NCBI GenBank assembly: GCA_045837725.1
Contig: JBEWZL010000121.1
Location: forward strand, 186,001 to 250,000
Origin: Vermamoeba vermiformis
Taxonomy: Eukaryota
Length of the DNA stretch: 64,000 nucleotides
Direction: 5' to 3'
The notes under the pieces are model-generated. The model did not search any database. It was not told the DNA's origin and was given only the letters and a program-made list of their open reading frames with translations. Of this stretch, positions 10,061 through 45,800 are shown piece after piece. Position 1 is the first letter of the stretch. Every line of letters begins with the position of its first letter. A program made the translations under genes and the position numbers.

Positions 10061-11319
<1,259 letters not shown>

Positions 11320-11970: not shown

Positions 11971-14900
11971 ATGTTAGCAAGGTTCATATTTATTTTGGCG
12001 TTGTTCAATGGTGCCATCCAATCACAACGTAAGTGCAACAGGCTATTTGCCGGTGGATAAATTGATAAAAGTTGATTAATATGAGCTGCGTTATAATAAT
12101 ATTCCAGCATTTAATTAACTAATATTCTCTTTAGTGGTGTTTTATACCAGGTACCCTGATCAGATGGAGCCAAGTTTCGTTGGCAGAATTAACGGAATCA
12201 CCATATCTGACACTCGAGAAGAAGGTGTTCTCTACGTAGTATATGGCGTCGGTAATGAGACAGGCATTAATACTGTAACTCAACGATTTGGTGCGACATC
12301 CGGACACCACGTCTTTCCTCCTCGTCCAACGGAGACAATATATGCACCAAACAAAATATTGCCCATGGGATCAAGTAAGTAGCAGATTCCCTGAAGCGCA
12401 TAGCTAAATTTTTTTAGGGGATGTGCACGCGGTTGTGGCATCTGGCTCTTCGCTCTTTGTTGCGAGCTTAGTGGATAATATTAATATAATATTGTCTTAC
12501 TGGCACGTGAACAGCGATTTGAAAACAAGACAGAGATGTCTATAGGCACTTACGGCGTATGGCAAGGCACCGATCCGTTGTTTCAGACTGGCAACAATTT
12601 CAAATTCGAGGGCAGCACGACTTATATCTCGTCATTAGCTCTCTCAAATTTTGAAAATCCAAAATTAGCGTTGGTCGTAGGATTTACTAGCAGCATTTTC
12701 AAAGTTCTGATTTTTTCAAACGGTAAGCTCGATCCAGAATTTCCAAACTTTACACTAATTATCTATACGATAGTATCATTGTACGACTATGACCTCGAAA
12801 GAATTATTGACGCACCTGGCAACGGATCCATGCGAGTAGGAAAGCCAGCAGTCGTGGACTATTCATTTGGCTCAACCAACACGTCGTTTCTGATGGTGTA
12901 TTCGTACTTGATCGACTCAGTTAAATGGGGCATGATAGCGATGAGACTTGCTGGCGATCAACGAGAATGGAAAACAATGAACTTGCCGTTTGAAAGTTAT
13001 AGCGAGATGGACATAAAATTGGCACCATTAACTGGCACGTACAAACTACTAACAGAGTGGTCATAATTAATCCATATTATAGGTCCCAGTAGGGTCGTGA
13101 TGACGATGAGCTACAAGAATGGCACGCACTCAGTACTCACGCAAGGTGTGTACAGAGTGGAGGACGACATAATGCGGTGGTTTGAAATCACAGCCGGGCC
13201 AGTGAACGTCAATTATTTGTTCGAGGCGAATGTGCTCAGCAACGGCGAAGCAGTTACAGTGTGGACTAATGACCAAGACCTCACGACCATCTACGGCAGA
13301 GCTATCAAATTCCCCGACACACCGTTCTACTTCACGCTCCCAGCAAGTGCTTCGACCAATGATATCACACGGCTCACAATAGCGCCTATTTCATTTGCTA
13401 CATTTGCCGTCACGCAGACAGTCTCGGGTGGTAATCCCGCGGCATTCGTGAACTTCTACGTGCTGTCCAGTTGTTCCGACAATGTAACAACTGCGAATGA
13501 GAACTGTGTCGTGGGCGAAGGTTGCCAGAACTGCATGTGCATGACTGGCTGGTATTCCATTGGTCAAGGCTACACGTGTGAAACGAGTAAGTGTCTAAGC
13601 GAGGCACGAATGACAGTCAGGACTAATTCAGTTTGTGATAGAATGTGGCGATAATATCCGTGCTGGGAACGAGTCTTGTGATAACGTGAACGACACCAAC
13701 TGCAACAATTGCACGTGCACTGAAGGCTATTCTTGGAGCACGGAAGGTAGGCTACTGAGCACACTAACTGGTCATGCTAACATTTCAAACAAAAGAACTG
13801 CTCTGTACCTTACCTGGTCTCTCGGTCACAGGACCACCAGAGCCATTCGATACGAAGCTCGTAGCAGTAATTGTGTGCGTGCCTGTTGGCGCTGGGTTGG
13901 CGATCTTCTTTGGCGTTTACTTTGGCCGCAAGAAGGCAAACGCGAACAAGAGTAAAAAAGCTTCTATCGCTGATGTTCCTCTTGATGAATCCAATCTTAG
14001 CGGAAAGGTACAGTGTTCAAGTTAAACTTGACAATGACATGATTCTGATGTTCCTATAGTACTCGGGCATTGATCCAACTAGCGCGCAGGTCTACACATC
14101 TACTCACAGCTCAGTGATGAGTCCACCAAGCAGATCAAGTGACAGGCTGCGCGTGCCATACAAAGAGATAGTCTTCCACGAGGAGATAGGTTCAGGAGCG
14201 TACGGCAAAGTGTTTGTCGGTGGTAAGTCGGAACTGTTTTCTGTATCGCATGACTAAGTTTACTGCATCAAAAAAAGAGTGGCAACGTACCAAAGTAGCT
14301 CTGAAGATCAACACATTAGCTCGAGGAGCTGAGTTTGAGCGCGAAGCTGAACTCATGGTGTAAGTCACGCTCGATCACAGTATCTTACAGTAGTGCTTAA
14401 TATTGTAATTAGTGACCTTCGACCACACCCAAACGTAGTTCAAATGCTCGGAGTGTCATCAGACGGACCATATCCAGTGATGATTCTCGAGTTCTGTGAC
14501 GGTGGAAGTCTCGACACAAAGCTGTTTGACCCGAGTGAACCTTTTCCAGTGGCAGAGCAACTCAAGACGGTGTCAGGCATTGCGAAGGGTCTTTATCACT
14601 TGCACAGGAATCAAATCGTGCATCGAGACTTGGCAGCACGAAACATCTTGCTCAACTTCAATCAACCAAAGATTTCTGACTTTGGTTTGTCTCGTCTTGT
14701 GAATGACACACAGAAAGGCACAACACGATCGAATGTTGGACCCATTCGATGGATGTCTCCTGAATCGTTGAAGAATCAGACTTATAGTACAAAGTAAGCG
14801 TTCGGCTTCAAAATTTTGAAAATCTTTTTTGACGTAACTTCTTGTAGATCCGACGTGTGGTCGTTTGGCATTGTTGTCTACGAGATTGCTGCACGCAAAG

Positions 14901-15088
14901 AGCCTCACGCAGAAGCAGATCAAATGGCAATTGGTCTTCAAATTAGAGACAGCGGAATCACTCCCAAGATACCTGAGGACTGCGATCCGTGTCTCGCTGA
15001 ATTAATGCAAAAATGCTGGCAGTTCGATCCTGAACAACGACCGACTATGGAAGAAATATGCGACATTCTTGACAACTACATGCACTAA
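11971..15088 (+). CDS. Receptor tyrosine-kinase-like protein, copy 1 (signal peptide, beta-rich ectodomain, Cys-rich repeats, TM, kinase)
   Basis: MLARFIFILALFNGAIQSQ signal peptide; CGDNIRAGNESCD repeat; TM VAVIVCVPVGAGLAIFFGVYF; GSGAYG, VALK, HRDLAARN, DFG, GPIRWMSPE, DVWSFG. Apparent frameshift near 12522-12535. Confidence 0.88.
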
Positions 15089-17294: not shown

Positions 17295-20200
17295 ATGAAG
17301 ATTATATTTATTTTATTTGTGCTGGTGTGGAATGTTCAATGCCAGAGTAAGCATCGGTTACGATTCGGGATCTGATTACCTTACTAATTTTTTGATTTGA
17401 AATTCATATTTTTACCTATTATTAATTAATATTATTTTAGCATTTCTATTCACTAAATTCTCGGACTCCATGCAAGATCAGTTTCTTGGACGAAGAAATG
17501 GCGTAACGTTATCAAATCCCAATATAGCCAACACAATTTATGTTGGCTATGGAACACCAGGAAATGCAACACAGACTACTTTGGCAGTGCAAATGTTCAG
17601 CCCATTCACTCCAAATTCGTTTCCTCCGCAGCCTTTGGAAACGTTAACAACTTCTCCATCAAAATATGGCCCACCTGAAGGTATTAATTATGCTTTATTT
17701 TAATATTGGTTTAGTTTATTAAATAGTTCAGGCGATTTCGCAATATTGGCCACACTGGTTGGAAACGATGTGTTTCTAGCCTCTAAGCTGACTTCTGCAA
17801 TGGCCCTAACACGTTGGGCGCCTAATAGTAATACATCAAATACTGAAATGGTGTATTCTTTCGCCGATACTTCGACGTCGTGGAACACTCCAGAAGTGCA
17901 GAAAAATTCCAGTTTTACGTCAGATTCACAAGTTCAACTGATGGCAATTGCAGTCGTTGATAAGGCGCAAGTTGAGCCATTAGTAGCGATTGCGGTTAAT
18001 TTTGATAACGTGTTCCGAGTTTTTATTTACAACAGTAAGTGACACTTTGACAGATGTCAAAATTTCAACGAACTAACTAAATTATAGTTACTAGTACTAG
18101 CACGATATTAGTCGGGGTTGTGCCTTCGTCACCTCCGCCAGATAAGACAGTCGGAGCTATAGCTCTAATGCCCTTCAATGGTGGCTCTGAGTTTTTGCTA
18201 TCATTTGCCGTTCAACAATCCCCAAGCGTGTGGGAAGTAAGACTGCAAATTATAGACAAATATTTCAATTTGCGAGATTATTTAACGGTCAACGGAACGA
18301 GCATTCGTGCAGTTTACGACATGAAGTTGCATCCGTCATCAGGCACGTAACCTCATACTGTTTACCGCCGTAATTTCTAACGCTCTTATCAGTTAGTGGA
18401 TACTTCTTTGTCACCGCTCAATTAGCGAACTCAACGCATTCAATGATCAAACGGATTTTAGTGCAAGAAATTGATGCCAACAGTGGAGCCGTTGTGGAGA
18501 TGATCGATGTAGTGGCGATATACAACTCAAACTCGTTTGTTAGCGCGATGGATAAACTGTCGAGCGGCGAGATGGTCACGGTGTGGATCAATAACAACGA
18601 TGATACTTACATCTACGGACACGCTAAGAACTACAGACCGGATAAACCTGCTGCATTCACATTCAAAATACCCGCAGCAACAGCGACGAGCGCGATAGGT
18701 AGTTTGATTGTCACACCAATGTCTGACGCTACTTTTGCAATCACGCAAGTTGTTCGAGGCAGTAACCCGTCGTCATTTGTCAACTACTATGTGCTGTCAA
18801 ACTGCGGAGACGCGACGATAACTCCAAACGAGAACTGTGTCAGTGGCAATGACGGCTGCATCAACTGCATGTGCTCGGAAGCAACAGGCTGGCATTCAAC
18901 TGGTGATGGCGTGACATGCATGACTAGTAAGTAGAGGCGCTCCTATGTGTAGATTGGGTTGAACTTCATTTTCTGACTTTATTCTGACAGCATGTTCCGA
19001 TGGAATTATTGCGGGCAACGAGACGTGTTACAACCAACAAGACCCTAACTGCGTTAATTGTCAGTGCATTAACGGCACCGAATGGAACACCCAGCAAACT
19101 CTATGCCTGGTACCGTCACCAATCGTCTAATGGAGTTGCAGCACCACTGAATGGTGAGCCAAGCACTGGCCCTACCACCGGTCCTGTGCCCTTCGATAAC
19201 AAACTGATAGCTGCTATTGTTTGTGCACCTGTAGCAGCAGCCGCGGCCATCTTTTTGGGCGTGTTCTTTGGCCGTCGAAATGCCAAGAAGAAAGACCAAG
19301 GCCGCGATGATGACACCAAAGACGACTTGCCATTGAAGCCTTTAGATAGCGGAAAGGTAAGGCTGCTTACTGACTTTAAGTGATTCTCAAGACTTAGTAC
19401 TAACTGATTTCGCTCAGTACTCTGCAGTCGAGGCAATACCACCAGTTCGAACTAATGAAGAGAAGTACGGTGCTATCAATACCGCTGCGCCTGCACCACA
19501 GAAGAGCGTTGATAAGATGAACGTGCCTTACGCGGACTTGAAGTTCATGAAAGAGATCGGCTCTGGTGCGTACGGCAAGGTGTTCATTGGAGGTGAGTCA
19601 CAACTGCTTCATTTACAACCATAGCACGGCACTAATCGAAACGAACAATCAGAATGGCAGCGCACAAAAGTAGCACTGAAGATCAACACTCTTGCATCAG
19701 GTGACGAGTTTGCACGTGAAGCCAAACTCATGGTGTAAGTCGACACGTTCTTCTCGCAATCTATTCATTCTGACACGTATACAGCGAGCTACGACCTCAT
19801 CCAAATGTAGTTCAAATGCTCGGAGTGTCATCAGACGGACCATATCCAGTGATGATTCTCGAGTTCTGTGACGGTGGAAGTCTCGACACAAAGCTGTTCC
19901 ACGAATCGCAAGCCTCGACCATCAACGAGCAATTAGACATGATCTCAGGCGTTGCAAAAGGCCTTTATCACTTGCACAGAAATCAAATCGTGCATCGTGA
20001 CTTGGCAGCACGAAACATCTTGCTCAACTTCAATCAACCAAAGATTTCTGACTTTGGTTTGTCTCGTCTTGTGAATGACACACAGAAAGGCACAACACGA
20101 TCAAATGTTGGACCCATTCGATGGATGTCTCCTGAATCGTTGAAAAATCAAATTTACAGCCCGAAGTAAGTTCTGGTAATTCAGTTGTGGACGCATCTAA

Positions 20201-20465
20201 CGAAACGCGCAGATCTGATGTGTGGTCCTTCGGCATTGTTGTCTACGAGATTGTGGCCCGTAGAGAGCCTCATGCAGAAGCAGATCAAATGGCTATTGGT
20301 CTTCAGATCAGAGACAACGGAATTACGCCGGAAATACCCGAAAGCTGCGATCCAGGCCTTGCGGACTTGATGCGGAAATGCTGGCAGTTGGATCCTGAAC
20401 AACGACCGACTATGGAAGAAATATGCGACATTCTTGAAAACTATGTGAAAGAAAAGAGTGCTTAA
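17295..20465 (+). CDS. Receptor tyrosine-kinase-like protein, copy 2
   Basis: MKIIFILFVLVWNVQCQ signal peptide; CGDATITPNENC and CSDGIIAGNETC repeats; TM IAAIVCAPVAAAAAIFLGVFF; full kinase motifs HRDLAARN/DFG/PIRWMSPE. Apparent +1 frameshift near 19121. Confidence 0.88.
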
Positions 20466-20533: not shown

Positions 20534-23500
20534 ATGCAACCTGCTGTAATAGTGTTAAGTTTGTGCATCCTGTTTGGGATCGCCAATGCCCAGAGTAAGT
20601 AACGGCTAAACTCCTCGATCGGAGATGGGACGGAAAACTATTTTAATTTTTATTTGCAAGCTTTTTAATTATTAATCGAAATTTAAGCGTTTGCAAATTA
20701 ATGCAATATTAACGACCTATTATTTTAGCATTTTTATATTCTCAGTTTCCCGATCAAATGGATGACGCTTTTCTGAACAGAAAAAATGCGTTTACTCTCA
20801 ACAGTTACTATAATCCTAACACTATTGTAATCGGATATGGCGACAGCAACGATAATCTTGTCTTGCAACACTACACGAACGATCCAAACAACTTCCCTCC
20901 ACAAGCGGTGGACTCACCTACCCCGTTTATTGAAGGACTCAAACACCCGACAGGTAATATATTATCATTTTGGTCGTTATAATAAGATTGCGATATTGAT
21001 TCAGTTTTCGGATCGTAGGAGCAGGCAGCGTAACGGGAGTTATTATGTTGGATAATTATGCATTTATTGTTTCCTCTGCACAAGGCGGAATGACAGCTTT
21101 GTTTAGTAACTACAATAAGACCACCGTCAAGATGGAGCCCGTTCGGATTAAAAGTTTACAATTGGACGGAGGCGCCGTTTCAGAGCGGTACTCCATTGAA
21201 CATCACGAGCAAAGCTTTTTTTATCTCCTCTGTAGTGCTCAACGACTTCACTGCTGATGTGAACGTCGCAATCTTGGCCCGATTTTCTGATATCTACAAG
21301 GTCATTATCTTCGCATGTAAGTTAGAGGAATTTTGTAACGATAACGTGGTACTAAATGTAATAATTCGTAGTCAATACAACTGGCTTTGATATAGTCAAG
21401 GTGGTAGAGCTGCCTTCAAATGCTCAAGGCATGCCAGACATCATTCCCTTTCCTGCGACCAACAACGCACAGTTGCAAACATTCTTCGTGGCGTATTCGT
21501 ACCAAGTGGGCGTTTCGAATTGGGGCATTATGACTTATCGCACCGACGACCAGTATCAACTCGTGGACTCTTACAGCATCGACATAACGTTGAACGCTCG
21601 TACTGCTTTCCGGATCAAACTGAACGAGATATGTACGTCACGTTATTATAACTCAATCTTGTTTACTGACCCATTGTTAGCATCCACGGGACAATACTGG
21701 ATGGTCACAGCGATGTACGTGACGGATCAGGGCGTCTTATTATCACAAATCATCAAAGAAGAGGCAACGAAAATAACACGTTATGGCACGAGGATAGCAA
21801 CTCTTCCAGGCACGACTTTTACTCCATTCACGACACATGCATTGCTCAGCGGTGTTTCCGTTACATTGTGGACGAGCAGCGGCGACAATACTACTATTTA
21901 TGGTACTGCGATCAGATACGGCAGCTGACTCTCCTGTGTTCAATTTTACTATCCCTGCTGCGACCCCAGCGGCCTTGATCAATGACTTGATCTTCTCGCC
22001 CTTGGAGAACTACACCTTTGCACTCACTCAAGTCGTGCGAGACCCAAAATCCCCGTCAGGATTCATTAACTACTATGCACTGTCCAACTGCAACGATTCG
22101 ATCATCACTCCGAACGAGAACTGCGAGGCTGGAGCGATAGGCTGCGTGCAGTGCATGTGCGATGAGGGCAATGGATGGCACCCATATGATGGCATCACGT
22201 GCGTTACTGGTAAGGAGCACAAGGTACCGAAACATGAAAGTTAAACAAACCTTCTGAACACATTAGACTGCACGGATGGTATTACTGCTGGCAATGAAAC
22301 GTGTTACGATGGAAACGATCAGAACTGCAAGAACTGCCAGTGCGCCGAGGGCTTTGCCATCAATTCGACCAGTAAGTCAAAAGTACTGTGCCAATGTGAT
22401 TGCTAACTTTCAGCAGCCTCGTTATGCGCAGCGATAGCGGGCCCGGAAGCATCCCGGATTTTATATGCCGTACGTTGCCGCTATTGTGCTTTGTCCTATT
22501 GGTGCGGGTGCTATTATCTTCCTCGCTGTCTTCTTCGGCAAGAAACAAAAGAAGAACAAGCAGAAGGGCGATAAAGATGAGAATACGTCCAAGGACAACA
22601 TCCCTCTTACGACACCTACGGTAAGATTGATAACGTCAAATCAGCCACGTACTCATTGTTCGATAGGGCGCGTATACTACTGTGCCTACTGTGGATGGAG
22701 AAGTTCGCACTAATGACCATAAATACGGTGCTATCAGCAGTGCGTTGTTGACTCCCAGCGCTAACAATACTGTCGATAAGATGAACGTGCCTTACACAGA
22801 CTTGAAGTTCATCAAAGAGATCGGCTCTGGTGCGTACGGCAAGGTGTTCATTGGAGGTGAGTCACAACTGCTTCATGTAAATCAAAGCGCATCGCTAACA
22901 CGAGTCACACAAACAGAATGGCAGCGCACAAAAGTAGCACTGAAGATCAACACTCTTGCATCAGGTGATGAGTTTGCACGTGAAGCCAAACTCATGGTGT
23001 AAGTCACACGTCGATGTTGAATCGAACCATTGCTGATGTCCTTTCATAGTGACTTGCGACCTCATCCAAATGTAGTTCAAATGCTCGGAGTGTCATCAGA
23101 CGGACCATATCCAGTGATGATTCTCGAGTTCTGTGACGGTGGAAGTCTCGACAAAAAATTGTTCGATCCCAATCAACCGTTCACTGCAGCAGAGCAACTC
23201 AAGGCAGTGTCAGGCATCGCGAAGGGTCTTTATCACTTACACAGGAACCAGATCGTGCATCGAGACTTGGCAGCACGAAACATCTTGCTCAACTTCAATC
23301 AACCAAAGATTTCTGACTTTGGTTTGTCTCGTCTTGTGAATGACACACAGAAAGGCACAACACGATCAAATGTTGGACCCATTCGATGGATGTCTCCTGA
23401 ATCGTTGAAGAATCAAACATACAGCACAAAGTAAGAGTACTTTACAGGCGCTGTTTTATCACCCAAACTCACGCGATTGTGCAGGACTGACGTGTGGTCG

Positions 23501-23737
23501 TTTGGCATCGTTGTTTACGAGATTGCTGCACGCAAAGAGCCTCACGCAGAAGCAGATCAAATGGCTATCGGTCTTCAAATTAGAGACAGTGGAATCACTC
23601 CCAAGATACCTGAGGACTGCGATCCGTGTCTCGCTGAATTAATGCAAAAATGTTGGCAGTTGGATCCTGAACAACGACCAACTATGGAAGAAATATGCGA
23701 TATACTCGATAGATATATGGAAGAAAATAAAATGTAA
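20534..23737 (+). CDS. Receptor tyrosine-kinase-like protein, copy 3
   Basis: MQPAVIVLSLCILFGIANAQ signal peptide; CNDSIITPNENC and CTDGITAGNETC repeats; TM VAAIVLCPIGAGAIIFLAVFF; kinase motifs. Apparent +1 frameshifts near 21138, 21921 and 22453. Confidence 0.85.
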
Positions 23738-24145
23738 ATCACTCTTGTAAATATTTGCACTTTCTCGATACACTAAATATTAAAAGCCGAACCTACAAAT
23801 CCTCCAAACTTCAAAGCGTATAACGATGTAGACATACATTTGCGTTTCAATAATTATTATTATTTGCGAGCAAAGGAGAAGACTCTTCTTTCGTCGTTGA
23901 GTTTTTCTTCGGTTTGGATTTGCGATAAATGCGTCGGGCAAGGAAGTATCTTTGACTATTCCGGAGTTGATGGACTATCTGCTGTTTCTCATCAACGATT
24001 GCTAATTTATCTACACCAAGCTTTATCCCTAAAGGGAGTGGCAGCAATTATTTTCTCGATCGGCGTTTGCACAAGGAAAACTCTGTGGCGTACTCCGTAC
24101 TCGAGTGTGCAAGCCTTGAGACCAGATTAACCAAGAATAAGTAAA

Positions 24146-24562
24146 TTAATTACATACATATTCTGCAATGAAGTCCCAGAATTTAGGCGCAAGCTTTGAA
24201 AGGAGGTTTGAAACAGATGTCCGTCTAACGCCAAAAAATTTCGCCGCTTCTTCTTGGGTGACCTGGACTGCAGTGTTGAAATGGCCAAATAGGTATATAC
24301 ACGACGCGGCGATAGTTCTCGGCCTCTTCTTTTGAGTTTGTAGCTCCAAAAATTTCTCAAATAATTCAATCCCTGGATCTTCAGCTCCAAGAGGCAGCAT
24401 GTCTCGATGCTCATCGGCCCATGCCTTTATTTTCTCCAATATTATGGTAATTTGTCGCGGAGAAAGGAGTTTAGCCTTTCGAGCTTCTTTGATTTTTGGC
24501 TGCTTTGCATCTTTCTCTACCGCAGTAGAGGGACTAAGGCGAGTAGATTTGACGGTTGTCAT
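24146..24562 (-). CDS. Small protein with a single TFIIB/TFB-like cyclin-fold repeat (possible second exon toward about 23850-24115)
   Basis: KRPRTIAASCIYLFG...VTQEEAAKFFGVRRTSVSNLLSKL resembles the TFIIB core repeat with its HTH. No Zn ribbon or second repeat is visible. A possible gtatgt donor lies near the ORF end. Confidence 0.6.
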   Translation of the reverse strand: MTTVKSTRLSPSTAVEKDAKQPKIKEARKAKLLSPRQITIILEKIKAWADEHRDMLPLGAEDPGIELFEKFLELQTQKKRPRTIAASCIYLFGHFNTAVQVTQEEAAKFFGVRRTSVSNLLSKLAPKFWDFIAEYVCN

Positions 24563-24810
24563 AGCTTGTAGTAACTAAGTTATGCTGGGGCGTGTGGTGC
24601 TGTTTAGTGTCTGTAACGTTGAACTGTTGCTGTACATTTTTTAGTTGAGATTTCGGTTTTTGGCCGCAAGTTCAATTCAGAGAAACTTAACTTACTTAGT
24701 TACCCGTGTTGTCTACGAACACCATTTCACATTGCTTGCCAAAGAAGCGTTTCATCCATCGAGCTTTGATGGCAATTTATTAAAGTTGACAATAATAAGT
24801 TACAGATCGG

Positions 24811-26116
24811 ATGGAACTTGTACAACTGCCTCAAGAAGTATTGCTAGAATTTTTCCAATATTTAAGTTTACCAGAATTATGCGTGCTTGGTCAGACTAAT
24901 AGGGCGCTATTCAATTTAACGTAAGTGAAAATTAACTCGGGTGACCTTTGTTGATAAGCTAATAATTTTATTTTATTTTTAATATTTATATTATTACTTG
25001 CACGATAAATCTATGCTTACAATATTAATATTCACAGCAACGACGATCAGTTTTGGAAATCTAGAGTTTTGCGCAATTTACGCCACATTACATCGAAGGA
25101 ACAAGCAAATAAATACATCGAAGAGCTTGATAGAGAAATAAGAGAAAAATCAGACAAAACAATGAGGAAGTTTCAATCAAGTGATTGGAAGAAGATCGTC
25201 GACATCTATTCGGTCCTATCAAAGGAGCGACGGTGGATTCCTAAAGACCACTTCAGCGAAGCAAATGTAATGCCTCATTGGGAAAATTATAGATCCACTG
25301 GCGAGGAATTTCGGGTTGTAAGTAATTTAACAATAATGACGAGATTGAGGTTTCAAACTCAAACCTATTATTACCTATAGAGCTTACTAGGAAAAGATCG
25401 CGTTGGAAAATCAGCATTGACCGTCAGATTTGTATCGCGACAGTTTCTTGCAGAATACGATCCGACTATTGAAGACTCCTACCGAAAGACAGTTCGCATG
25501 CCTGGTGCTAAAAAAGATCATTTATTGGAATTATTAGACACTGCTGGGCAAGAAGAATATGCAGCCCTTCAAAATACTAGCATGAAGTAGGTATTGAGAG
25601 ATCCAGATCGAGCTGTTACACGTGACTGACGTTACTTTTCAGAGCACCGGCCTTTGTACTAGTGTTTGATATTACATCCACGGAGTCATTTGAACACATT
25701 AAAGAGTTATTGGCCAAAATCAAATCTGTAAAACAAGTCGAAGATATTTCAACCATCGCTATTGTCCTGATTGGGTATGTCCCAGATGCGCATGTATATT
25801 GTTCATACGTTATAGTATACTAATACTTGGGACCTAGTAACAAGTTCGATTGTGATGCTGAGCGACAAGTTTCACCGATCGAAGCTTTATTGCTCGCAAA
25901 GGAGATCAATGCACCGTACTTCGAGACAAGGTACCGGTTAATATATACGATTGTTTTTGAATGTGATATTAACACTATTGTAACAGTGCCAAGAGCGAGT
26001 TAAATGTAGATAATGCGTTCTTCCAAATAATGTACGAAATGATATTGAAGGATCTGAAGTACCGCGGAGACAAACCCGTGAAGAAATCAAAGGACAAGAA
26101 TTGTATCATAGGTTAA
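24811..26116 (+). CDS. F-box / Ras-family GTPase fusion with C-terminal polybasic + CAAX motif, 6 exons
   Basis: MELVQLPQEVLLEFFQYLSLPELCVLGQTNRALFNLTNDDQFW F-box, spliced in frame to FRVSLLGKDRVGKSALTVRF, YDPTIEDSYRK, LDTAGQEEY, IGNKFD, FETSAK, KKSKDKNCIIG*. Confidence 0.9.
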
Positions 26117-26366
26117 ATAATAATGCATATTACAGCAATAAGATTTCGAAATGTAAATTAAATTACTATAATTGCTACACATTACGAACCTAGGATTTTG
26201 TGCCGGATCAACGCTACATCCATCAAAAGATCTGCACTGCATTGGTAATCGTTGCGACGCATAATGATAGAATTTTAATACCTCTGAAAGTGCAAAAGAT
26301 TGTTACCTGTTAGTTTCGTTTCTGCGCTGAACTCAGTTATTTTAAGAGAAGCAAACAAGGCACCAA

Positions 26367-27869
26367 ATGTTAGCACGCATATTAAAGCAAACGTGCCGAG
26401 TTATTTCGACGACAAGCAAAGTAAGTGCACCATTGTCGCACTTATTTGTTCGTCGTAATCGGAACAAAGCTAAGCCGAAAGTTGTACCTCGAAAAGATAC
26501 AAGATCTACTGATGCTCTGCTCGAATATCATAAGTTATACGAGCTCATTGGTAATATTGGTGCTAATGGAACTGAAATTGGCGAGCTTATGGTTGAAAAC
26601 GAGGTTACGAAGGAGTTCCAAAATGAATACGATGAAGAGCAGATGGAAGAGGCAAAGAAGCACTTAGTCAAATCGAATCCGCAACACAAAGCTATTCAAA
26701 CAGCTATTGATAATGCCTACAAATCTTTCAGCTTTGCTTTCTCTCTTGGTGGATTTTGGGACTTCAAAAAAGATGTTTTGCAGATCAAATCTGCCGACGG
26801 TACACTTGTCGATTGCGGAAGCCCTATCGCTCTGTCAAAAGAAAAAATACTGGCGCATTGTGCTCCTGCCCCTTTTGGAGACCTAAAAACAATGACCACT
26901 GTTGTTGATCCAACCGTACGATCTGCTTGGGAGCTTGACTATGATAGAGTCGTAATTACGAATGAAAACTTCCCAAAGGACTACCAACGAAAGAAAATCG
27001 AAGAGATACTTGCAGAAGTACAACAAAACTTCCAAGATGAATCGTTGTATTTGGAGCCATACAAGTTGAACGTCTACACGAAAGGAGGGTTCTTTAAGCC
27101 TCATAAGGACACTCCTCGCTTTGAAAATATGATCGGCACTCTTGTCACAGTGCTGAATTATTGTGGAAGCTCTCTTGTTGTGCGTCATGGAAAAGAAGAG
27201 TTCGTCGAAGATTCTAGTACAACAGCTTTCTTCTCTGACCGAGTGCACGAAATTACACCTATCGAAGATGATATGCGAGTCAGCCTGACATTTAGCATAT
27301 GCAAGGAGAGTGCGTCGGTGACAAAAAGTCCTCAAGCCATCACACATAAAAGAGACACTCCGTTGGTGAAGGACTGCAACATTGCCTCGCTAATTAAAAC
27401 AATCAAAAAATCGCCTCTGAAGGCTATCGGAATCTTAACGGAATTTGATTACACTCAAAAGAGCATCAGCATTCAAAGCTTAAAGGGCAACGACAGAGCG
27501 ATGTTTGAGGCCTTATCAAAGGAACCAAGTTTTGAAGTGGATCTGCTTCCCGTAATTGTTAAAATGTACCATTCGGACAATGAAATGCTCGATGAATTCC
27601 CTGTCAGTTATTACGAGTCAGGAAGCGTTTATCGTTTTTTGACCGAGGATATGGACCGCATGTTGCGAGGCGACAAGCCTACATACAAAGATGATATAGT
27701 GTTCTTTTGGCAAGAAAAGGGCCTGGGCATCCACGAACGCCGTATAGAAGCTGCAGAATTAGTTGGCAACCACTCGCAGCCGACCGAGGTTGATAACATC
27801 TACTTCAACGGTGCTATTATTGTGAAAAATTTGAATGCAGTTAAGACTGACAAAGTGAAGAAAAAATAA
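26367..27869 (+). CDS. 2-oxoglutarate/Fe(II) oxygenase (500 aa, intronless) with putative mitochondrial presequence
   Basis: YKLNVYTKGGFFKPHKDTP (HxD), GTLV, HEITPI (distal His), RVSLTF (2OG-binding Arg); APFG...VDPTVRSAWEL; basic, acid-free N-terminus. Confidence 0.85.
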   Translation: MLARILKQTCRVISTTSKVSAPLSHLFVRRNRNKAKPKVVPRKDTRSTDALLEYHKLYELIGNIGANGTEIGELMVENEVTKEFQNEYDEEQMEEAKKHLVKSNPQHKAIQTAIDNAYKSFSFAFSLGGFWDFKKDVLQIKSADGTLVDCGSPIALSKEKILAHCAPAPFGDLKTMTTVVDPTVRSAWELDYDRVVITNENFPKDYQRKKIEEILAEVQQNFQDESLYLEPYKLNVYTKGGFFKPHKDTPRFENMIGTLVTVLNYCGSSLVVRHGKEEFVEDSSTTAFFSDRVHEITPIEDDMRVSLTFSICKESASVTKSPQAITHKRDTPLVKDCNIASLIKTIKKSPLKAIGILTEFDYTQKSISIQSLKGNDRAMFEALSKEPSFEVDLLPVIVKMYHSDNEMLDEFPVSYYESGSVYRFLTEDMDRMLRGDKPTYKDDIVFFWQEKGLGIHERRIEAAELVGNHSQPTEVDNIYFNGAIIVKNLNAVKTDKVKKK

Positions 27870-36818: not shown

Positions 36819-39800
36819 ATGCTGGAAAGTATTGCATCTGCGATACTTTCAAAAGTATTGGGCGACTACGTTAAGGGATTCGAGGCCAAGAACTTAAAAT
36901 TCTCATGGAACGGTGAATTATCATTGACTGACCTCGAGCTCTCAACGACGGCCTTGGATAACTTCGACATTCCGATCCGCATCAAGGCTGGCTCCATAGG
37001 AAAATTGCATCTGCTCATCCCATGGCGAGAATTAGGCCACAAACCGTCTATTGTGCGCATAGAACGTGTATATGTTATATTAGGACCTAAGCCATTGAGT
37101 GAGGTAACTCATTTATTAATTAAATAATTTTTCTAATTTTCCTTGATCGGCTAATTATTGAGTAAAATATACACACAATTTAAAATAACCACGATAATAT
37201 ATTATTACAAAATTTAGGCTGAATTATTGCAACAATGTAATGCAACTGAAATTATTTAATTAAATGAGAAAATTGTCTGTAATTATTCTGAATTATTTCA
37301 TTAAATAGTACGATGAAGCTACGGCTAAAAAACGCGAACAAATGGCGAAAGAACGAAAATTGCAATATGTAGAGCTTGTCAAACAGACCAAAAATCAAAA
37401 TATACAAAAAGGTATGCAGTAATTGTAGCTATTCCTTTTCGAGCGAAATATGCTAATAATATTCTCCTATTAAGCTACGGACAACGACTCTTTTCTTAAA
37501 AGACTCGTCACAACGGTAGTAAACAACTTGCAAATTTATATTGACAAGATCCACATTCGCTATGAAGACGATCAAACTAATCCAGAGGTAATTATTAATA
37601 ATGCGTATTTAACTCATATTTGGATCTATTTTTTTGACATTAACCGCGTTTTAATTTATTTGTTAACTTTGCAATGCTTTAATTTACGTAATTACTTTGC
37701 AATTACCCTAATTATATCGAGTATAATAACATTAGTACTTGTTTTCGCATTTATTTGGAAGCACTTGAGGAATCACAAATTTTTCAGCGATTTGAATCAC
37801 CTTCCGCGTTGTCACTATTCGTCAACCTTCGGATAAATAACTCAAGCTTTGATAATAACGTAAATATTATTATAGAGACCGTTCTGTGCCGGTGTGACAT
37901 TGGAACATTTGCACGCACAAAGCACGGACCGTAATTGGAAGCCGATGATTCCAGACCAAGCGGAGCCACTCATTTACAAGCTGATCACATTAAAGAATTT
38001 AGCCGCGTATTGGAACCCTTACGACTCGTTCTTGCAGTACAGCTCCATTCAAGAAATGCGAGAACTGATGGAGATCCTGGTAAGCCAATTCCTTTTTTTT
38101 GTTCGTTCAGTGAATTAATCTTTGCGCAGATTTACACGGACGATCACGACCCTGAGCACGTGTACGTCATTGAGCCAGTGAGTTCGGAGCTCAAAGTGGT
38201 GATCAACAAGAGCGACTTGCCTGACATGCTCACGCCCAAGGCCAAGGCTCGCTGCACATTCGACAGAATTTCAATTGCAGTGCGCGAGAGTCAATACAAC
38301 GACTTTGTGTCATTGATGAAGCGAATGATTCGGTACAGAAAGGGCTCCAAGTACCGCAAATGGCGTCCAAAGACCACTGTCAAAGAGGACCCGAAAGCCT
38401 GGTGGGGTTTCGTGGGCAATGCTGTCTTGTCTGAAATTAAAGAACGCAAACGCAAGTGGACTTGGGAATACATCAAGCAACGCAAAGTGGACAAGTTGGC
38501 GTACATCAAGTTGTGGAAGAAAGCCAAGAAGAAAAAGAAATTCACCGAGCAAGAGACCAATGAGCTCAAGCGCTTAGAAGAGAAGCTCTCATTCGAAGAT
38601 ATTTTGTTGTAAGTAGAATACTAGATCTATTTATATATCCTTACTCAACTCTTTGTAGCTTCCGCACGTTGACCGATGTGTACTTGCGCAAAGAAGCGAG
38701 CAGCGAGAACAAGAGCAAGCCAAAGAGCGGCATTACTGGCTGGTTCTCGAGCTGGTTCTCAAAGAGTGATGACGACACACTGGAGATTCCCTACTTGAAC
38801 GTTAAAGTAGGTGACAACGAGTGGAAGGAAATCTACGAGGCCATTCAGTACCAAGAGAAAGAAGATACCAGTGGCGCGAACAAACCACCGTCGGACTGGG
38901 TGCAGATTCAAGCTGACTTCTTACTCGGTGTTGCCTCCGCGACCTTGCAGAACGAGAAGGGTGAACCAATAGCCAACGTAGCTTTTGAAGCGTTGCAATT
39001 GGGTCTGTTGCTCCGTGACAAGTGGACTTCGTTCAAAGCAGAGCTGGACTCGCTCGAGTTGACAGATTATTTCACGAAGAACACGCGATTCTCTCACATC
39101 ATTACACCTCAACGAAGGAACCAAAAATTGTTCGATTTCAGATTGGAACTCAATCCTGTCGGACAAAACTTTGACACAGGTGTTTACCTCGTGACTAAGC
39201 CACTGAACATCGTGTACAACTACCCGTTGATTCACCGAGTCATTTCATTCATTGTGGATCCGTTGTCCTCTGGCCCGTCAAAGAAGAAAAAGACAGGAAT
39301 CAACTTGAAGGCTGAAAGTCAATTGAACTTCTTGCTGAAGCTCAAGAAGACTCTTTATCTCGACCTTGATATTCACGTAAGTTATTTTGGCGACGAGGCA
39401 CGTGCATTACAAGACCTAATAATACTATATAGGCTCCGAACATTTTGATGCCGGAGAACGTGATTGAGGATACAGCTCCGATGTTAGTGGCGATTTTGGG
39501 TCAATTCAAGATGAACACCGATCTGTCGCAGATGAACCGAAAAGACTTGCAAAATGTTCTCAAGACACAAGTGCCGGACCCTGACAGCGAAGAGTATTTG
39601 AGGAATTTCTATGACTCGTACAACCTCAAAGTGTCTTCGTTGCAGATCCTGTTGACAACGTCAGCACAAAAGAGCACCATCTTCAAAGAAGTCGAGCGCA
39701 ACAACATTACTACAGACCATTTGTTGGAGCCTATCGATGCAGAGGTCACGCTCCGTTTGTGCAAGATTAACGCCGAGGAACTCAGTAACGTTAGGTGAGT

Positions 39801-42800
39801 AACACATAATTTATTTTTATATCAACCAACGGGAATTATCTGTCGTAAGTGATTGTTGCTTTACTTGCGCTCGTTCCATTCCCCAGATCAACAATATATT
39901 ATTTCAAACTTCAATACTACGGCATATAATTTCTTAAAACTTCTTCGTGTATTAACCCTCGGACAGACTCGACAGCACGTTGCCGACGCTACGCTTGAAG
40001 ATATCAGCTGAAAGATTGAGCACATTGATCAACTTGATCTTGGCTGTCGTTGATCAGTTGGAAACAGAGAAAAACAAATCAACGCCTCAGATTGTAGAAC
40101 TACCTCCTGAGCCCGTTGAGTTCAATCAAGAAGAGAGCATTGAAAAATTCACACAAAATATTATCGACATCAGTGTGCCCGAGGCCTCGAAGTAAGATCC
40201 CTCATTCATGCGTTTTATTATGTTTTGGTATTAACTGATCAATTAGCACAAATGCGGATTTGGTTCAAGAGGAATTCAAAGGCAAGGTCTTCCAAGCCGA
40301 ATTGAACATTCCTGAAGCCGTTGTAGTGCTCTACCGCCAAGAGCAGGACGCGAACGTTGACTTTGCAGTGTTGATGTTGAACGGCATTGGTCTTGAGATC
40401 TGCAAGCTCAAGTACGAGTTCACGTTGGACGCCAACCTGAATAACTTGATCATTGAAGATCTACTGCAACCGTACGGCAAGGACTACCGCTACTTGGCTC
40501 ACAGTACAACGTTGTCTGATGATTTGTTCAATAACTTCATTATGGACAAAGTTTTAGACGCAGAATCGAACTTGATTTTGATCTCGTACAGAAACGTGTC
40601 TAAGGTACGTCAGTGATTTGGGTTACGTAATGAGCTAATCAGATCTATCTAGGAATCGCCGAATTATGACAATACGGATCAATTTTTGCACTGTGAATTC
40701 AACGCTCTGTCCTTGGTTGTGAACAGACACACCGTAGCGATACTGATCAACTTCTTCTCGTCGATCACTGTGCGCAAGAAAGACGCTTTGCCCGTACAAA
40801 CAGACAACCAGACCATTATGCAAGCGAACGCTGGCAAGAAGGTTGACCCGAACCACACCACCATCAGGGTAAGATTATTTACAATTTACGTTACATCTCT
40901 TAACCCGAGACGAAATGATGGTTATAACTGATTTAATATGAAGTTGTGAAGTACACAACGAGGGATTTAACATTTTAACTGATCTCATCTTCACCTTCGC
41001 CACTGTCTTTTTACCTTAATGGCTTGTTATTAACCTTTCCGCTCAGATCACGGTGGAAATCAAGGGTATTACCCTGCTGTTGAACGGTGACGATGGAGCA
41101 GACAAAGCCTTGCCATTGGCACGTGCCGCCCTGTCTAACTCAGCGTTTGAACTGAACGTGAAAGACACTGGCTTGGCCATTGAAGGTCACCTTGGTAATT
41201 TGAACATCAAGGACTTGCGTGCCACCCCCAAGTACCCAACGATCCTCGACATCAAGGGCGATCACATGGTCGACTTCATGTTCACTATCACACCTTGCCA
41301 AGAGTTTGCAGGCATCAAGGACGAATACAATATCTACATCAAGGTCTCTAACGTTCGATTGATCTACATTGAGAGATTTGTTAGCGAGTTGATGACGTAC
41401 TTGGCCGTGTTTGGAAGCATCTTCGAAGCAACCAAACAGAAAGTCACGGAGTACTTGGGAAGCTTGTACCAAAACCCAACAAAAGGTAATTATCACGTGG
41501 CTCCAAAACTTTACGATACTAATCTTTTTGACAGTGTTCAAGTACTGCGTGGAATTGATCGCACCAACTGTTATTGTGCCTCAAAGCGCCGTCTCGCATA
41601 AAGTTTTGTTGATGGATCTTGGCAAAATATCGATTCAGAACAACTTTACTGAAATCAAGCGCTACTCGTCAATGCTTGAAGAGATTGCAATCAAGCTGAA
41701 GCATGCGAGCATTACTACTGGCTCAATGCTCAAGGAAGAAGTACATCCTACTGATGACTTGGTCGATCAAGACAACAAGATCCTCAATGATTTGATGGCT
41801 GTGCTATGCGTTGAACGTGCACTTGACCCAAAGGCTATTCAACACGAGATCCCAGATGTCCGTGTGAACATCCACATCCCGTCAATTGCCCTTACAGCCT
41901 CGCCCCAACAGCTCAAGTTTTTGCTCGATATGTGGTCTGAAAACTTATTGCAAACGCCTTCCGACCAACAAGGTAAGTCCCTTAGGTTACTAACATTGAA
42001 AACAACTCTAACTCGTGATTAGTTGCCGAAGTACGCAAAAGGAATGCCTCTAACTTGGCACAAAAGGTCCAAACTGCAGAAAAGACCGTTGCTGTCTCCG
42101 TTTGGACGACACTAGCGTTGAACATCGAGATTCCGCTCATTTCGTTGACATTGCTTGATCTTCCTCTGCATTTGAACAAAGGCAATATTCCAATGGACGC
42201 AGCACTTCCTGAACCCTTAGCGCAGTTAGAGCTTTCCTTGTTTGAGATGGTCATGAACACCACATCAGCTGAAACGATGATTGTAAGCAACCTTTATGCG
42301 GCAATTGGTAATTCAAACGTCTAATTTTTGTTCAGTTGGATGTTGACGTTAGCACGATCAAAGTGTACGACATGAGACCAAACAGCCCCGTCGTCCAGGA
42401 GTTCCAGACGTTTATCGCACCCATCACACGACACGAAGAGGCGAGCAGAAGTCAATTAGTTGTCAAGTACCTCCGCCATAGCAATGGAAAGCAAGATATT
42501 ATTGTAAGTCATGCGAAACATTTACTTCTTTGTTTCTAACTCAATCAGATCAACAATGACCGCTTCCGTGCCATTCTGATCCCTGAGGTCATTATGCGCA
42601 TGCAAGCCATTGTAATGGGTGCACAACAGCAGCTCATGGCTACGCTCGAGAAGCGCGGCAAGCTGGTGGCTTTGTTGAACCCTGAAGTCGCCCATCAAGC
42701 GGAGCTGAATGCTGCTTTGGCTAAGAACTTGACCGTGTCCGAAGCACAGAAACAAGTCGGAATGTTGATGCGACTGACGATCACGAAACCACAATTCTGC

Positions 42801-45800
42801 ATCGTTGAAGATCTGACGAAAGAGGACTCCAAAGTGTTCATCATCCACTCGAATCTTACTCTGAATATGGCTAATAGTGACAATCACATGAAGATGTCAT
42901 TGACACTTCAAGGCACAGAGATCTTCAAGACAGCCATGAACATTCGCTCAACTATTGGTGCCGTTGAGATTATGGAGCCGTTTGACACATCAATTGAGAT
43001 GAAGACTGACCCTCACAACTTCGACATCGTTGTTGACATCAAACCGTTCCGAGTCATTTTCTCGTACAATGACGTCAAGATTTTGATGAATGCAGCTCAG
43101 CAGTGGGCTGTCATGCGCGACGTCACTGCTACAGTTGAAGATACCACTTCACTGGGCTGGGATACGACGGACGAGACATCCAAATTGGGAAGTGAAGACG
43201 GACCGAGCTCCTTCAGTCTGAACTCCTCTACAATTCTTGATGAAGGCTCGGACGTGAGTGATGAAAGTGACGAATGGGAAGACCCTGCTCAAAGCGAAGT
43301 TGGTCCACTGTCTGAGGAATCAGTTACTAGTACTAGTACGAGCACTGAGCCAATTAACAACACCAATAACGCTCCCAGCACTCCTCGCCAAGTGTCTCAA
43401 CCGACCATCGTGATCGACTCGCCTTCAAAGACGGAAGAACCAAAGGACGAACCGATGTCCGCACCTTCAGCTCTTACGAAGAAGAAGGACAAGAAAGAAG
43501 AGAGGAAAGATAAGAAAGAGCGTGAAAAGGAAAAGAGCAAGCAAAAGAAAGAGCGCGAGAAGGAGAAAAAGGAAAAGAAGGAGCGTGAAAAAGAGAAGAA
43601 AGAGATCGAAAAGAAAGAGAAAATGTTGCACCGCAAGTCAAGCGAAGTCAAAAGCCAACCGTCTTCAACTCAGAACACGCCCGTGAAGAAAGAAAAAGAG
43701 CCTGATTCACAACCACTCTCCCTCGAAAAGATGAGCAAGCAGACTTCCACCGCTAGCATCGTGTCCGTTCCAAGCGAAGAGTCAATCAGTCGCGCTGGTT
43801 CGGGAACGAAGCTAGACGTTCCTCAAGGACCGGTAAAGAACCAGAAGATTGTCATATCGCCGCACTCGTTCGAGATTCTGTTCATCGATGACGTGAAAGG
43901 CATTGACATCCCTCTCTTCCGAATCTTTGTCACCAAGTGGTTTGGTCATGTGCTCGATTGGTCTGCACAACTACAACTTGCTGCGGCACTTCAAATGCAC
44001 ATCGTCTACTTCAACTCGGACTTGGACACTTGGGAACCTTTCGTAGAGCCATGGGAGGTCGAGTTCAGGAAAACTGGCATCGAGACTGAAGTCCTGAGCA
44101 GAGAACTCATGAACGTCAACATCACTAAGAACCTGATGCGCACTGTTCAAAATGCCCTGAAATCTTGGACTGCGGATTTGGGTGGCTTAGGACCAAAGAT
44201 TGAAGAGCTCCCTGAAAACACGTTAACCAAGAGCCAGAAGGAAGACTCTCTAACAACCTCCAGCTTGCATCGCAATGTTCGGTCCACGGAGTCAACCCTG
44301 AGCATTACCCGCCACGAGTTCTACATTCAAAACTTGACCGGTGTGCCCATGTCATATCGTGTTGGCAAAGACGATCCTGTCATTTTGAAAACACGAAAGA
44401 AGCAGCCAATCGTCGCTAGTGGGCGCGTAAATAGGCGAAGCAGCACACTGACCAACACGATCAACAACAGATTGTCCAAGAACAAGCGAATGGTCGTGAC
44501 GCTCAACGTTGAGGGTTACGGTGAGATCAAGAACGCTAATATTCAGAACGTGGGCACGTTTGCTGCAACGGCTGAGAATGGCAAGCGAGTATTGTACACC
44601 GTGAGCTATCACAAAGGAAGCAAGATTGTGACAGTGACCTCGCCTGTGATCGTGGAGAACAAGACTACTTATCCCATTCAAGTACTTGTGGAGATCAAAG
44701 ATTCCGACACCAAGCCCGTGGAACTGCCCACTATTCCACCCGGCAAATCAGAGCCTGTCCCCATTACGACCGTCGGCGATGCCGTGCTGCGATTCCGCCC
44801 CGTTGATGGATATCAATGGTCGCGTGTCTCTTGCTTCGTACCAAAGTTGGAAGCCTCCATTAGACAAATTCAGTGCGAACCTCGTTCCACCAAAGACAGA
44901 CCGTTCTTGTTCACGATCAATGTCGACAAGGACTTCAACCAAGAGTTGAAGGACTATCACGTGATCACCTTGACAACCCCACTCATTGTCGAGAACTTGC
45001 TCCCTGTCACAATGGAGTACAAAGTCTGTGACAAGAAGACCGGTGCTTTACTACACTTGGGCGAGCTATTGAAAGGTGCACAGACTCCAGTGCACTACTA
45101 CGAAGCTCAACAAGAGTTAGCACTGACTGTACGCATTCCCGGCTTTGACTGGAGCGAGAAGGAGCCAATTGTTTGCAACAAGTCCAAAGATCTCGCGGAT
45201 AACATTGCAGTGGACGACAAGAACAATAGGTCGCTCTATCTCTCAATTGACAATGTGTAAGTAGACTTATCGTTGATTATTATAGCAATTCTAACAACAT
45301 GATAGTGAGAGCGATGGTACGCGCAAAGTGACAATCTACTGCCCGTACTGGGTCATCAACAGAACTGGATTGCCTTTGGTCTTCGGTGAACATCGTGAAG
45401 AATTGGCCGCAGGACTGGAAGAGGATGCCACTGAGACATGGGAGTTGAGCGGAGAACCACGTGACTCGTTCTTCGAAGACTTCTTCAATGCTACTCCTCA
45501 GCTGTTCTCGCTACGTGACTCGAGCAACAAATTGCACGTGAAGATTGCAGATTCAGTGTGGTCTCGTGGCATTGGTCTGCAGAATGCCTCACACACGACT
45601 GCTTACCTGCAAATGCCTGAGAAGCGCAAAGACGGTGACCGTGACCCCGGACGGTTGTATGAACTTTCAGTCGTTGAATACAGCGCCAAGAACGACTTCT
45701 GGCGTACAAAGGTCGTGGCGTTTGCACCTCGCTTTGTGCTTTTGAACAAGATGAGCAAGACCTTGTTCCTCAAGCAAAATGGCACTATGGACGTGTTTAC

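Follow-up and report, generated by a model that had tools for sequence, protein, structure and literature searches.

The F-box-Ras Gene

The window analysed here, a stretch of 64,000 nucleotides (nt) from Vermamoeba vermiformis (assembly GCA_045837725.1, contig JBEWZL010000121.1, positions 186,001 to 250,000), contains on its forward strand a gene whose product combines an F-box with a Ras-type GTPase domain; all positions below are those of the window. The coding sequence (24811-26116) consists of six exons (24811-24920, 25038-25317, 25381-25586, 25643-25774, 25838-25930, and 25987-26116, the last of which includes the TAA stop codon at 26114-26116), which join in frame to 951 nt and encode 316 amino acids (aa). 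The five introns measure 117, 63, 56, 63, and 56 nt, and all five are bounded by GT..AG. An in-frame stop lies close upstream of the start ATG. Contigs from two sequence runs, X3 and X1, match the window exactly, begin at 24720 and 24764, respectively, and enter exon 1, giving the 5' untranslated region a minimum extent of 24720-24810. The parts of the protein are arranged in the order F-box, helical linker of ~85 aa, complete Ras-type G domain, polybasic stretch, and C-terminal CIIG. Intron 1 (24921-25037, 117 nt) lies within the F-box. Intron 2 (25318-25380, 63 nt, GT..AG, phase 0), which an earlier preliminary description of this DNA had placed approximately, is exact in the six-exon model and separates the linker from the Ras domain. 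When the exon translations are compared individually with Pfam, exon 1 matches F-box-like (E = 2e-07), exon 2 matches no family, and Ras (PF00071) is found on exon 3 (5.2e-18), exon 4 (1.1e-05), and, below the cut-off, exon 5 (0.0051); exon 6 has no meaningful Pfam match. It is a functional nuclear gene, and the eukaryote that carries it has short introns of a fungus-like kind.

The Ras Domain and Its P-loop

The Ras-type G domain (25381-26071) is encoded by exons 3-6, with introns 3-5 inside it, and is recognized both by Pfam and by matches to solved structures. All of the G1-G5 motifs are present, as the preliminary description had listed them. The switch I/effector loop reads YDPTIEDSY (25456-25482), switch II reads DTAGQEE (25537-25557) and keeps the equivalent of Gln61, the guanine-specificity motif is NKFD (25839-25850), and the SAK motif (25929-25993) has its Ser codon split by intron 5. 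The P-loop at 25390-25413 reads GKDRVGKS (codons GGA AAA GAT CGC GTT GGA AAA TCA). HMMER alignment of a close relative with the same P-loop, P0001, to solved Ras and Rap2A places its Asp at Ras position 12 and its Arg at position 13; the canonical Gly12 and Gly13 are thus absent from the window protein. Asp12 and Arg13 are common to four close relatives, namely the window gene, P0001, P0050, and L001, whose P-loops are identical, and the earlier reading of the P-loop is borne out in full. In the same four sequences the residue after Gln61 (25555-25557 in the window) varies between Glu, Thr, Ala, and Val, and the switch II residues that flank this position are kept.

The Ras domain of P0001 matches Pfam Ras with an E-value of 1.3e-43, far beyond chance. 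Against solved proteins, P0001 gives 1.5e-36 for Ras, 3.3e-36 for Rap2A, and 7.1e-36 for KRas. When its predicted model is searched with Foldseek, Rap1 and KRAS head the list (TM ~0.9 of the target), and the VIA structure search gives a Z-score of 25.9 for NRAS. With the whole model as the query, the matches listed by both searches are Ras-like chains throughout, covering residues ~127-305, and they barely probe the N-terminal half. By these sequence and fold comparisons, the G domain is closest to Ras/Rap and not to Rab, Rho, or Arf.

Mutational studies of KRAS bear on the two altered positions. Intrinsic hydrolysis is weakened by every mutation of codon 12. Sensitivity to NF1 falls ~950-fold in G12D, and among the codon-13 mutants G13R alone is described as "relatively unresponsive" to NF1 (PMC13725342). 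By analogy with these mutants, and from the residue table of the family given below, the window protein has probably lost control by GTPase-activating proteins (GAPs). The same Arg13 could be read in the opposite sense, as an internal arginine finger that permits GAP-free hydrolysis on dimerisation and so makes the protein a ligase timed by its nucleotide. Arg13 occupies the third variable position of the P-loop, where GBP1 has its internal arginine finger (Arg48; PMC5084822) and where atlastin has one as well; Gln61 is kept in the clade with GKDR, and several F-box proteins, such as Fbxo4, act as dimers (PMC9101129). However, hydrolysis is not enhanced in KRAS G13R, which responds poorly to GAP (PMC13725342), Arg13 is limited to one clade of the family, and no head-to-head catalytic dimer is known for the Ras fold. 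A homodimer prediction for P0001 (score 0.01, mark 0.32) gives no verdict and speaks neither for nor against. We regard a self-activating GTPase as quite improbable.

The protein ends in a polybasic, Lys-rich stretch followed by CIIG (26072-26113), both also in agreement with the preliminary description. This tetrapeptide is CaaX-like with Gly as X. A complete screen of yeast farnesyltransferase found that restriction at X concerns chiefly K, P, and R, and that Ile is favourable at a2 (PMC10320760). Because Gly is not restrictive at X, Ile stands at a2, and a close relative ends in CIIS, prenylation of CIIG is plausible from the sequence.

The F-box and the Helical Linker

The F-box (residues ~4-48; 24820-25071) is split by intron 1 and is identified by Pfam and by comparison of a family profile with solved F-box proteins. 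Exon 1 alone scores 31.1 bits against Pfam F-box-like (cut-off 24.3) and 23.8 bits against F-box (cut-off 20.5), and residues 4-48 of P0001 match F-box-like with 9.5e-11 and 41.7 bits. The helical linker (25072-25317) belongs to no Pfam family. It is recognized from the family alignment and from predicted helices, and it carries a conserved Trp..Trp-Lys..Trp-x-Pro pattern. A profile of the N-terminal region was built from an alignment, A1, of eight family members and the window linker exon; W43, W87, and P105 (P0001 numbering) are invariant in its nine rows. Compared with solved proteins, this profile matches FBXO3 (1.9e-09, profile positions 6-91), FBXW7 (4.3e-06, positions 2-94), and Skp2 (5.7e-06), with FBXL5, FBXO4, and Skp2 all falling at ~6e-06 to 9e-06. 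Since the FBXO3 and FBXW7 alignments extend beyond the F-box and reach the second Trp-Lys of the linker, this is an ordinary F-box with its helical linker. In well-studied F-box proteins, such a helical linker holds the substrate-binding domain in place. The AlphaFold2 model of P0001 (36-row alignment, mean predicted local distance difference test (pLDDT) 76.8, predicted TM-score 0.79) places six helices ahead of a standard G domain, and the helices predicted for the linker region span residues 40-54, 57-70, and 84-97. By the profile and the predicted helices, the putative protein-binding domain at the C-terminal end is separate and stands behind a helical linker, as in an F-box receptor.

Membership in the F-box family suggests that the protein binds Skp1/Cul1. 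It could also bind Skp1 without a cullin and act in membrane traffic or signalling instead of degradation. Rcy1 of yeast is a CaaX-bearing F-box protein in a non-SCF Skp1 complex (SCF, Skp1-Cul1-F-box). Prenylated F-box proteins with leucine-rich repeats (LRRs) have moreover been predicted from mammals to fungi (PMC1847700). The sequence offers nothing that would separate this case from the SCF case, and we consider it improbable.

Evidence for a Single Fused Gene

Four sequence runs were examined over the gene. Two of them gave contigs, which reach exon 1 and part of exon 2 only. The contig from run X3 spans 24720-24920 and is identical to the window, and a 280-nt contig from run X1, with no difference from the window, joins 24920 straight to 25038 (GT..AG). 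Some pool of nucleic acid therefore contained the gene with intron 1 removed, and the spliced contig is hard to explain unless it is derived from RNA, the RNA label of the run being a guess. The two remaining, raw RNA-seq runs yielded 0 and 2 reads at the gene with 90-95% likeness, and because of this they provide no test of the window species. Thus, reads across the splice junctions, to which the preliminary description had looked, support the removal of intron 1, but no read of the window species in the four runs crosses intron 2.

The lack of such a read is what speaks for an artefact, in which a small F-box gene and a neighbouring Ras gene were misjoined or a decaying gene was taken for an intact one. 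Relatives of the gene argue strongly against this. The linker exon alone, as a protein query, retrieves P0001 with an E-value of 1e-38, 75% identity, and full coverage (one of 23 candidates). P0001 is an uninterrupted open reading frame (ORF) of 325 aa that has its parts in the order of the window protein, keeps GKDRVGKS, ends in CIIS, and reads through the point equivalent to intron 2 without interruption. Its cluster holds three such uninterrupted 325-aa ORFs (P0001, P0005, and P0007), on contigs of 1656, 4512, and 1103 nt; the shortest of these contigs is transcript-like, because it is too short for a coding sequence of 975 nt together with introns of the size found in the window. Five further relatives are full-length.

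A second genomic locus leads to the same result. A metagenome scan with the linker gave 96 pattern matches and one confirmed locus, L001, which has exons 1-3, introns at the same three positions as in the window, including intron 2, and the P-loop GKDRVGKS; its contig stops after exon 3. A kinase gene homologous to that at window 23045-23728 lies directly upstream of L001, as it does in the window, and the two loci are therefore syntenic. Over 196 codons compared between the window and L001, dN is 0.152, dS 1.48, and dN/dS 0.10; taken separately, the F-box exon has a ratio of 0.10, the linker one of 0.13, and the Ras exon one of 0.06. By this codon comparison, purifying selection is acting on all of the compared parts. 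The junction between linker and Ras exon is in phase and has canonical splice sites, and no start codon precedes the P-loop within the Ras exon. With the spliced contig, the contiguous ORF of a relative, the conserved intron positions, and purifying selection taken together, the earlier proposal that F-box and Ras domain belong to one gene is upheld. The gene and its fused architecture are almost certainly real, and a misjoined or decaying gene is very improbable.

Distribution and Catalytic Residues of the Family

When all of 1.84 billion representatives were searched with P0001 by HMMER, 33,091 matches reached E <= 0.001, nearly all of them plain Ras-like proteins. Among the best 150 of the 33,091, the alignments of P0017, P0023, P0045, P0102, and P0125 run from the F-box to the end of Ras, with 31-36% identity. 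When the N-terminal profile was applied to 163 collected proteins and the window model, the module was found in 19 rows, which represent 11 distinct lineages in which it is combined with Ras. The window model itself scores 1.5e-43, a value that is partly circular given that the window linker exon is within the profile; outside the set used to build the profile, P0071 (1.7e-06) and P0093 (9.4e-05) match. In P0045, a protein of the amoebozoan Nematostelium gracile (EukProt), Kelch repeats precede the F-box, and the other family members are on transcript-sized contigs. P0045 and P0159 are N. gracile isoforms of one transcript family, both with Kelch repeats before the F-box-Ras module. Word-indexed searches added no member: a query with the first 140 residues of P0001 gave back just that protein (one of 106), and the family N-terminal profile gave five matches among 7998 scored, none of them new.

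The preliminary description had also pointed to a profile search for this architecture with residues 12, 13, and 61 tabulated. In the resulting table, at least one of Gly12, Gly13, and Gln61 is altered in 10 of the 11 lineages. Beside Asp12 and Arg13 in the window protein, P0001, P0050, and L001, the family shows Lys12 and Glu13 in P0045, Ile12 with a switch II reading DCPGQ in P0102, Arg12 with a degenerate switch II in P0093, and Ala13 with AKSD in place of NKxD in P0125. Gln61 is replaced by Pro in P0023, P0129, and P0071 and by Ala in P0079. P0017 keeps Gly12, Gly13, and Gln61. For comparison, the table also holds 140 further proteins, of which 56 have all three canonical residues and 38 carry Thr61 as in Rap. 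Across the 11 lineages, the motifs for nucleotide binding are largely retained. GxxxxGK[ST] is found in all 11, YDPTIEDSY is identical letter for letter in seven, the window among them, and nine end in Cys-x-x-x. From this alignment, the family-wide loss of the canonical residues beside a kept effector loop fits a GAP-insensitive binding module.

Trees of the G domain were computed with FastTree (146 rows) and with IQ-TREE (56 rows, being the 11 family rows and every third of 135 others, with 90 omitted). When left free, the 11 F-box-bearing Ras domains do not form one clade in the 146-row FastTree or the 56-row IQ-TREE tree (6 label changes in each). Forcing them into one clade is not rejected with the 56 rows; the constrained tree has a log-likelihood 8.49 higher than that of the quick-search tree, with a p-value of 0.638 in the approximately unbiased test. 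A single origin of the 11 lineages is, for this reason, compatible with the sequence data and is not proven by them.

Comparison with Known GTPase Fusions

F-box-GTPase fusions are already known from protists, as the preliminary description had suspected. In Naegleria, an F-box is fused to Rab, Rho, Ran, or G-alpha domains, and the authors propose a "GTPase-dependent ubiquitination" (Herman et al., 2021, PMC8296547). The F-box is there the most frequent extra domain of GTPases, with 72 "F-box" entries in supplementary file 1 (PMC8296547). These proteins are similar to the window protein in that the F-box is N-terminal to a G domain of the Ras superfamily, and forms with Kelch, F-box, and GTPase occur in Naegleria as in P0045; in particular, the Kelch-F-box-Ras arrangement of N. 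gracile echoes the "Kelch, F-box" Rac entries of the Naegleria table. On the other hand, the supplement, in the entries compared by their descriptions, names no Ras with an F-box, and the window gene belongs to a different organism and has five introns. TbFRP of the Euglenozoa consists of FYVE, F-box, and a Rab18/Ypt6-like GTPase; its FYVE domain binds phosphatidylinositol 3-phosphate, and it has no CaaX, ending instead in VLLD (PMC3593210). It resembles the window protein in the succession of F-box and small GTPase and in having membrane targeting within the same protein, whereas the window protein has a Ras/Rap-like G domain with a polybasic CaaX-like tail, and no Pfam match to FYVE is found in the window exons or P0001. 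Fusions of ARF-family GTPases with an F-box or BTB domain in protists are described as lineage-specific inventions (PMC8358228). They share with the window gene the repeated recruitment of small GTPases into ubiquitin-ligase adaptors, and they differ in that ARF is not of the Ras family and that their N-terminal regions are unrelated and lineage-specific. Because the F-box-GTPase lists given in these papers name, in the parts consulted, no Ras proper with F-box and CaaX, the combination of a Ras-proper G domain, F-box, and CaaX tail is new among the known fusions. A phrase search of the literature found no paper on an F-box-Ras protein, and none for Amoebozoa by title or abstract.

Functional analogues exist on other cullins. 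Rab40, a Rab with a SOCS box, is a Cul5 adaptor, and RhoBTB, a Rho with BTB, is a Cul3 adaptor. Both join a GTPase domain to a cullin-adaptor module, as does the window gene, but the adaptor box, the cullin, and the GTPase subfamily are different, and the adaptor is C-terminal. Rab40 clusters are the nearest neighbours of P0001 in a feature-space atlas (score 0.80-0.81), which is a lead only. FBXO4-like clusters are also among these atlas leads, one of them with Arf matches in 65% of its members. The C-terminal domain of FBXO4 is said to have a small-GTPase fold; a review calls it only a "substrate binding domain" (PMC9101129). F-box, linker, and C-terminal domain come in the same order in FBXO4 and the window protein, but the window G domain keeps all of the nucleotide-binding motifs. 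Kinship with FBXO4 is unsupported: the alignment with solved FBXO4 is confined to the F-box (E ~7e-06, profile positions 5-60), and FBXO4 is not among the 50 fold-search matches listed, which are filled by Ras-like chains. The oncogenic Ras alleles G12D and G13R have at these P-loop positions the residues of the window protein. In contrast to those alleles, the window protein has both together, inherited and conserved in four sequences, in a gene that is under purifying selection.

A Possible Substrate Receptor with a Ras Domain

From these features, the protein may be a membrane-anchored substrate receptor of an SCF ubiquitin ligase in which a GAP-insensitive Ras domain serves as the binding module. 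The Ras domain would take the place of the WD40 or LRR domains of other F-box proteins, and its effector face would bind the partners, most likely proteins with a Ras-binding or Ras-association domain or regulators of Ras/Rap. The polybasic CaaX-like tail is predicted to anchor the protein in the membrane via prenylation. Owing to its altered residues 12 and 13 (12, 13, or 61 in the relatives), the Ras domain would probably be GAP-insensitive and mainly in the GTP form, and because it would mainly be in that form, binding would be constitutive and not switched. Binding of Skp1/Cul1, prenylation, the GTP-bound state, and the capture of substrates are all inferred. We estimate the chance that the whole mechanism holds as a little under even.

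Several points weigh against this account. Skp1 binding, nucleotide state, lipidation, and substrates are predictions throughout, and the N-terminal half of the AlphaFold2 model is of moderate confidence only (block pLDDT 55-76). Gly as X is unusual for Ras proteins, and no read of the window species in the four runs spans intron 2, at the very junction of the two halves. KRAS codon-13 mutants retain near-normal intrinsic hydrolysis (PMC13725342), and for this reason "GAP-insensitive" is a safer wording than "locked", and the term "GTP-locked" may overstate the case. The effect of Asp12 and Arg13 together is extrapolated from single KRAS mutants. Since P0017 keeps Gly12, Gly13, and Gln61, loss of switching is not universal in the family. 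Finally, the authors of the TbFRP study preferred to see its F-box as serving the rapid turnover of the protein itself (PMC3593210).

This last point leads to an alternative in which the F-box couples the GTPase itself to SCF, so that auto-ubiquitination and rapid turnover would produce a short-lived Ras-like signal and the protein would be no receptor. Auto-ubiquitination is common among F-box proteins, and the Ras domain of the window protein retains everything needed for signalling alone. For TbFRP, rapid proteolysis was proposed together with a noted difficulty of over-expression (PMC3593210). However, the linker is conserved (dN/dS 0.13) and resembles the rigid linkers of FBXW7 and FBXO3, which a mere degron would not need, and the degeneration of the catalytic site in the family is more readily reconciled with a role in binding than with that of a timed switch. 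Self-regulation is, in our judgement, unlikely, with a chance that is small but real.

A bolder version of the substrate-receptor model would see in this protein a natural "degrader", an inherited, GAP-resistant, GTP-loaded Ras wired to SCF at the membrane that, by its intact effector loop, continuously captures Ras/Rap effectors or GAPs for ubiquitination. An oncogene-type P-loop would then set the levels of Ras-pathway components, and the whole family would go back to one ancient origin common to amoebae and to other protists or fungi. This extension is likewise unlikely, and we offer it as a conjecture. The preliminary description had proposed a GTP-bound bait for a ubiquitin ligase; the architecture, its conservation, and the protist precedents agree with that interpretation, and its GTP state and the delivery of bait for degradation stay at the level of inference.

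Neighbouring Genes

Three tandem paralogues of TKL-like (Tyr/Ser-Thr) protein kinases are found on the forward strand at 14411-15073, 19780-20459, and 23045-23728, with a Pfam PK_Tyr_Ser-Thr match of 6.4e-17 at 23435-23734. The third lies just upstream of the F-box-Ras gene, and L001 has one kinase in the same place. The spacer between kinase and F-box-Ras gene (23740-24810) is ~1.07 kb in the window vs. ~150 nt in L001. It contains a reverse-strand ORF of 142 aa (24146-24574) with a weak HTH_Crp_2 match (4.6e-04, below the cut-off), and the extra DNA could be a remnant or a small gene that was inserted here. The F-box-Ras gene is directly followed by an uninterrupted forward-strand ORF of 507 aa (26346-27866), which has a sub-threshold match to 2-oxoglutarate-Fe(II) oxygenases (2.2e-05, 25.8 bits, cut-off 27). 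Farther away are two VPS13-like genes (38564-46677, forward strand, and 59362-64000, reverse strand), with VPS13_N, VPS13_M, and VPS13_VAB on several long ORFs. In the feature-space atlas, a VPS13 fragment has as neighbours clusters that are fungal or of unrecorded source, which is a lead only, and a comparison with Rfam gave no match. The Ras part of the gene model has a weak tblastn match at 10540-11154 on the forward strand (21% over 209 columns, E = 0.006), which could reflect a distantly related P-loop GTPase or be due to chance.

Significance

What stands out in this gene is the conservation of Asp12 and Arg13 under purifying selection and, across the family, the alteration of catalytic residues beside an intact effector loop. 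If the F-box controls only the protein's own turnover, the gene would add modestly to the known range of multidomain GTPases. If the Ras domain is instead the substrate arm of an SCF ligase, it would be the cullin-1 counterpart of Rab40 with Cul5 and RhoBTB with Cul3, built on Ras itself, and its architecture mirrors that of engineered Ras-pathway degraders. P-loop changes known from human cancer would then have been fixed under purifying selection to make a binding module that is permanently "on", and its partners would point to ancient effectors or regulators of Ras in little-studied eukaryotes.

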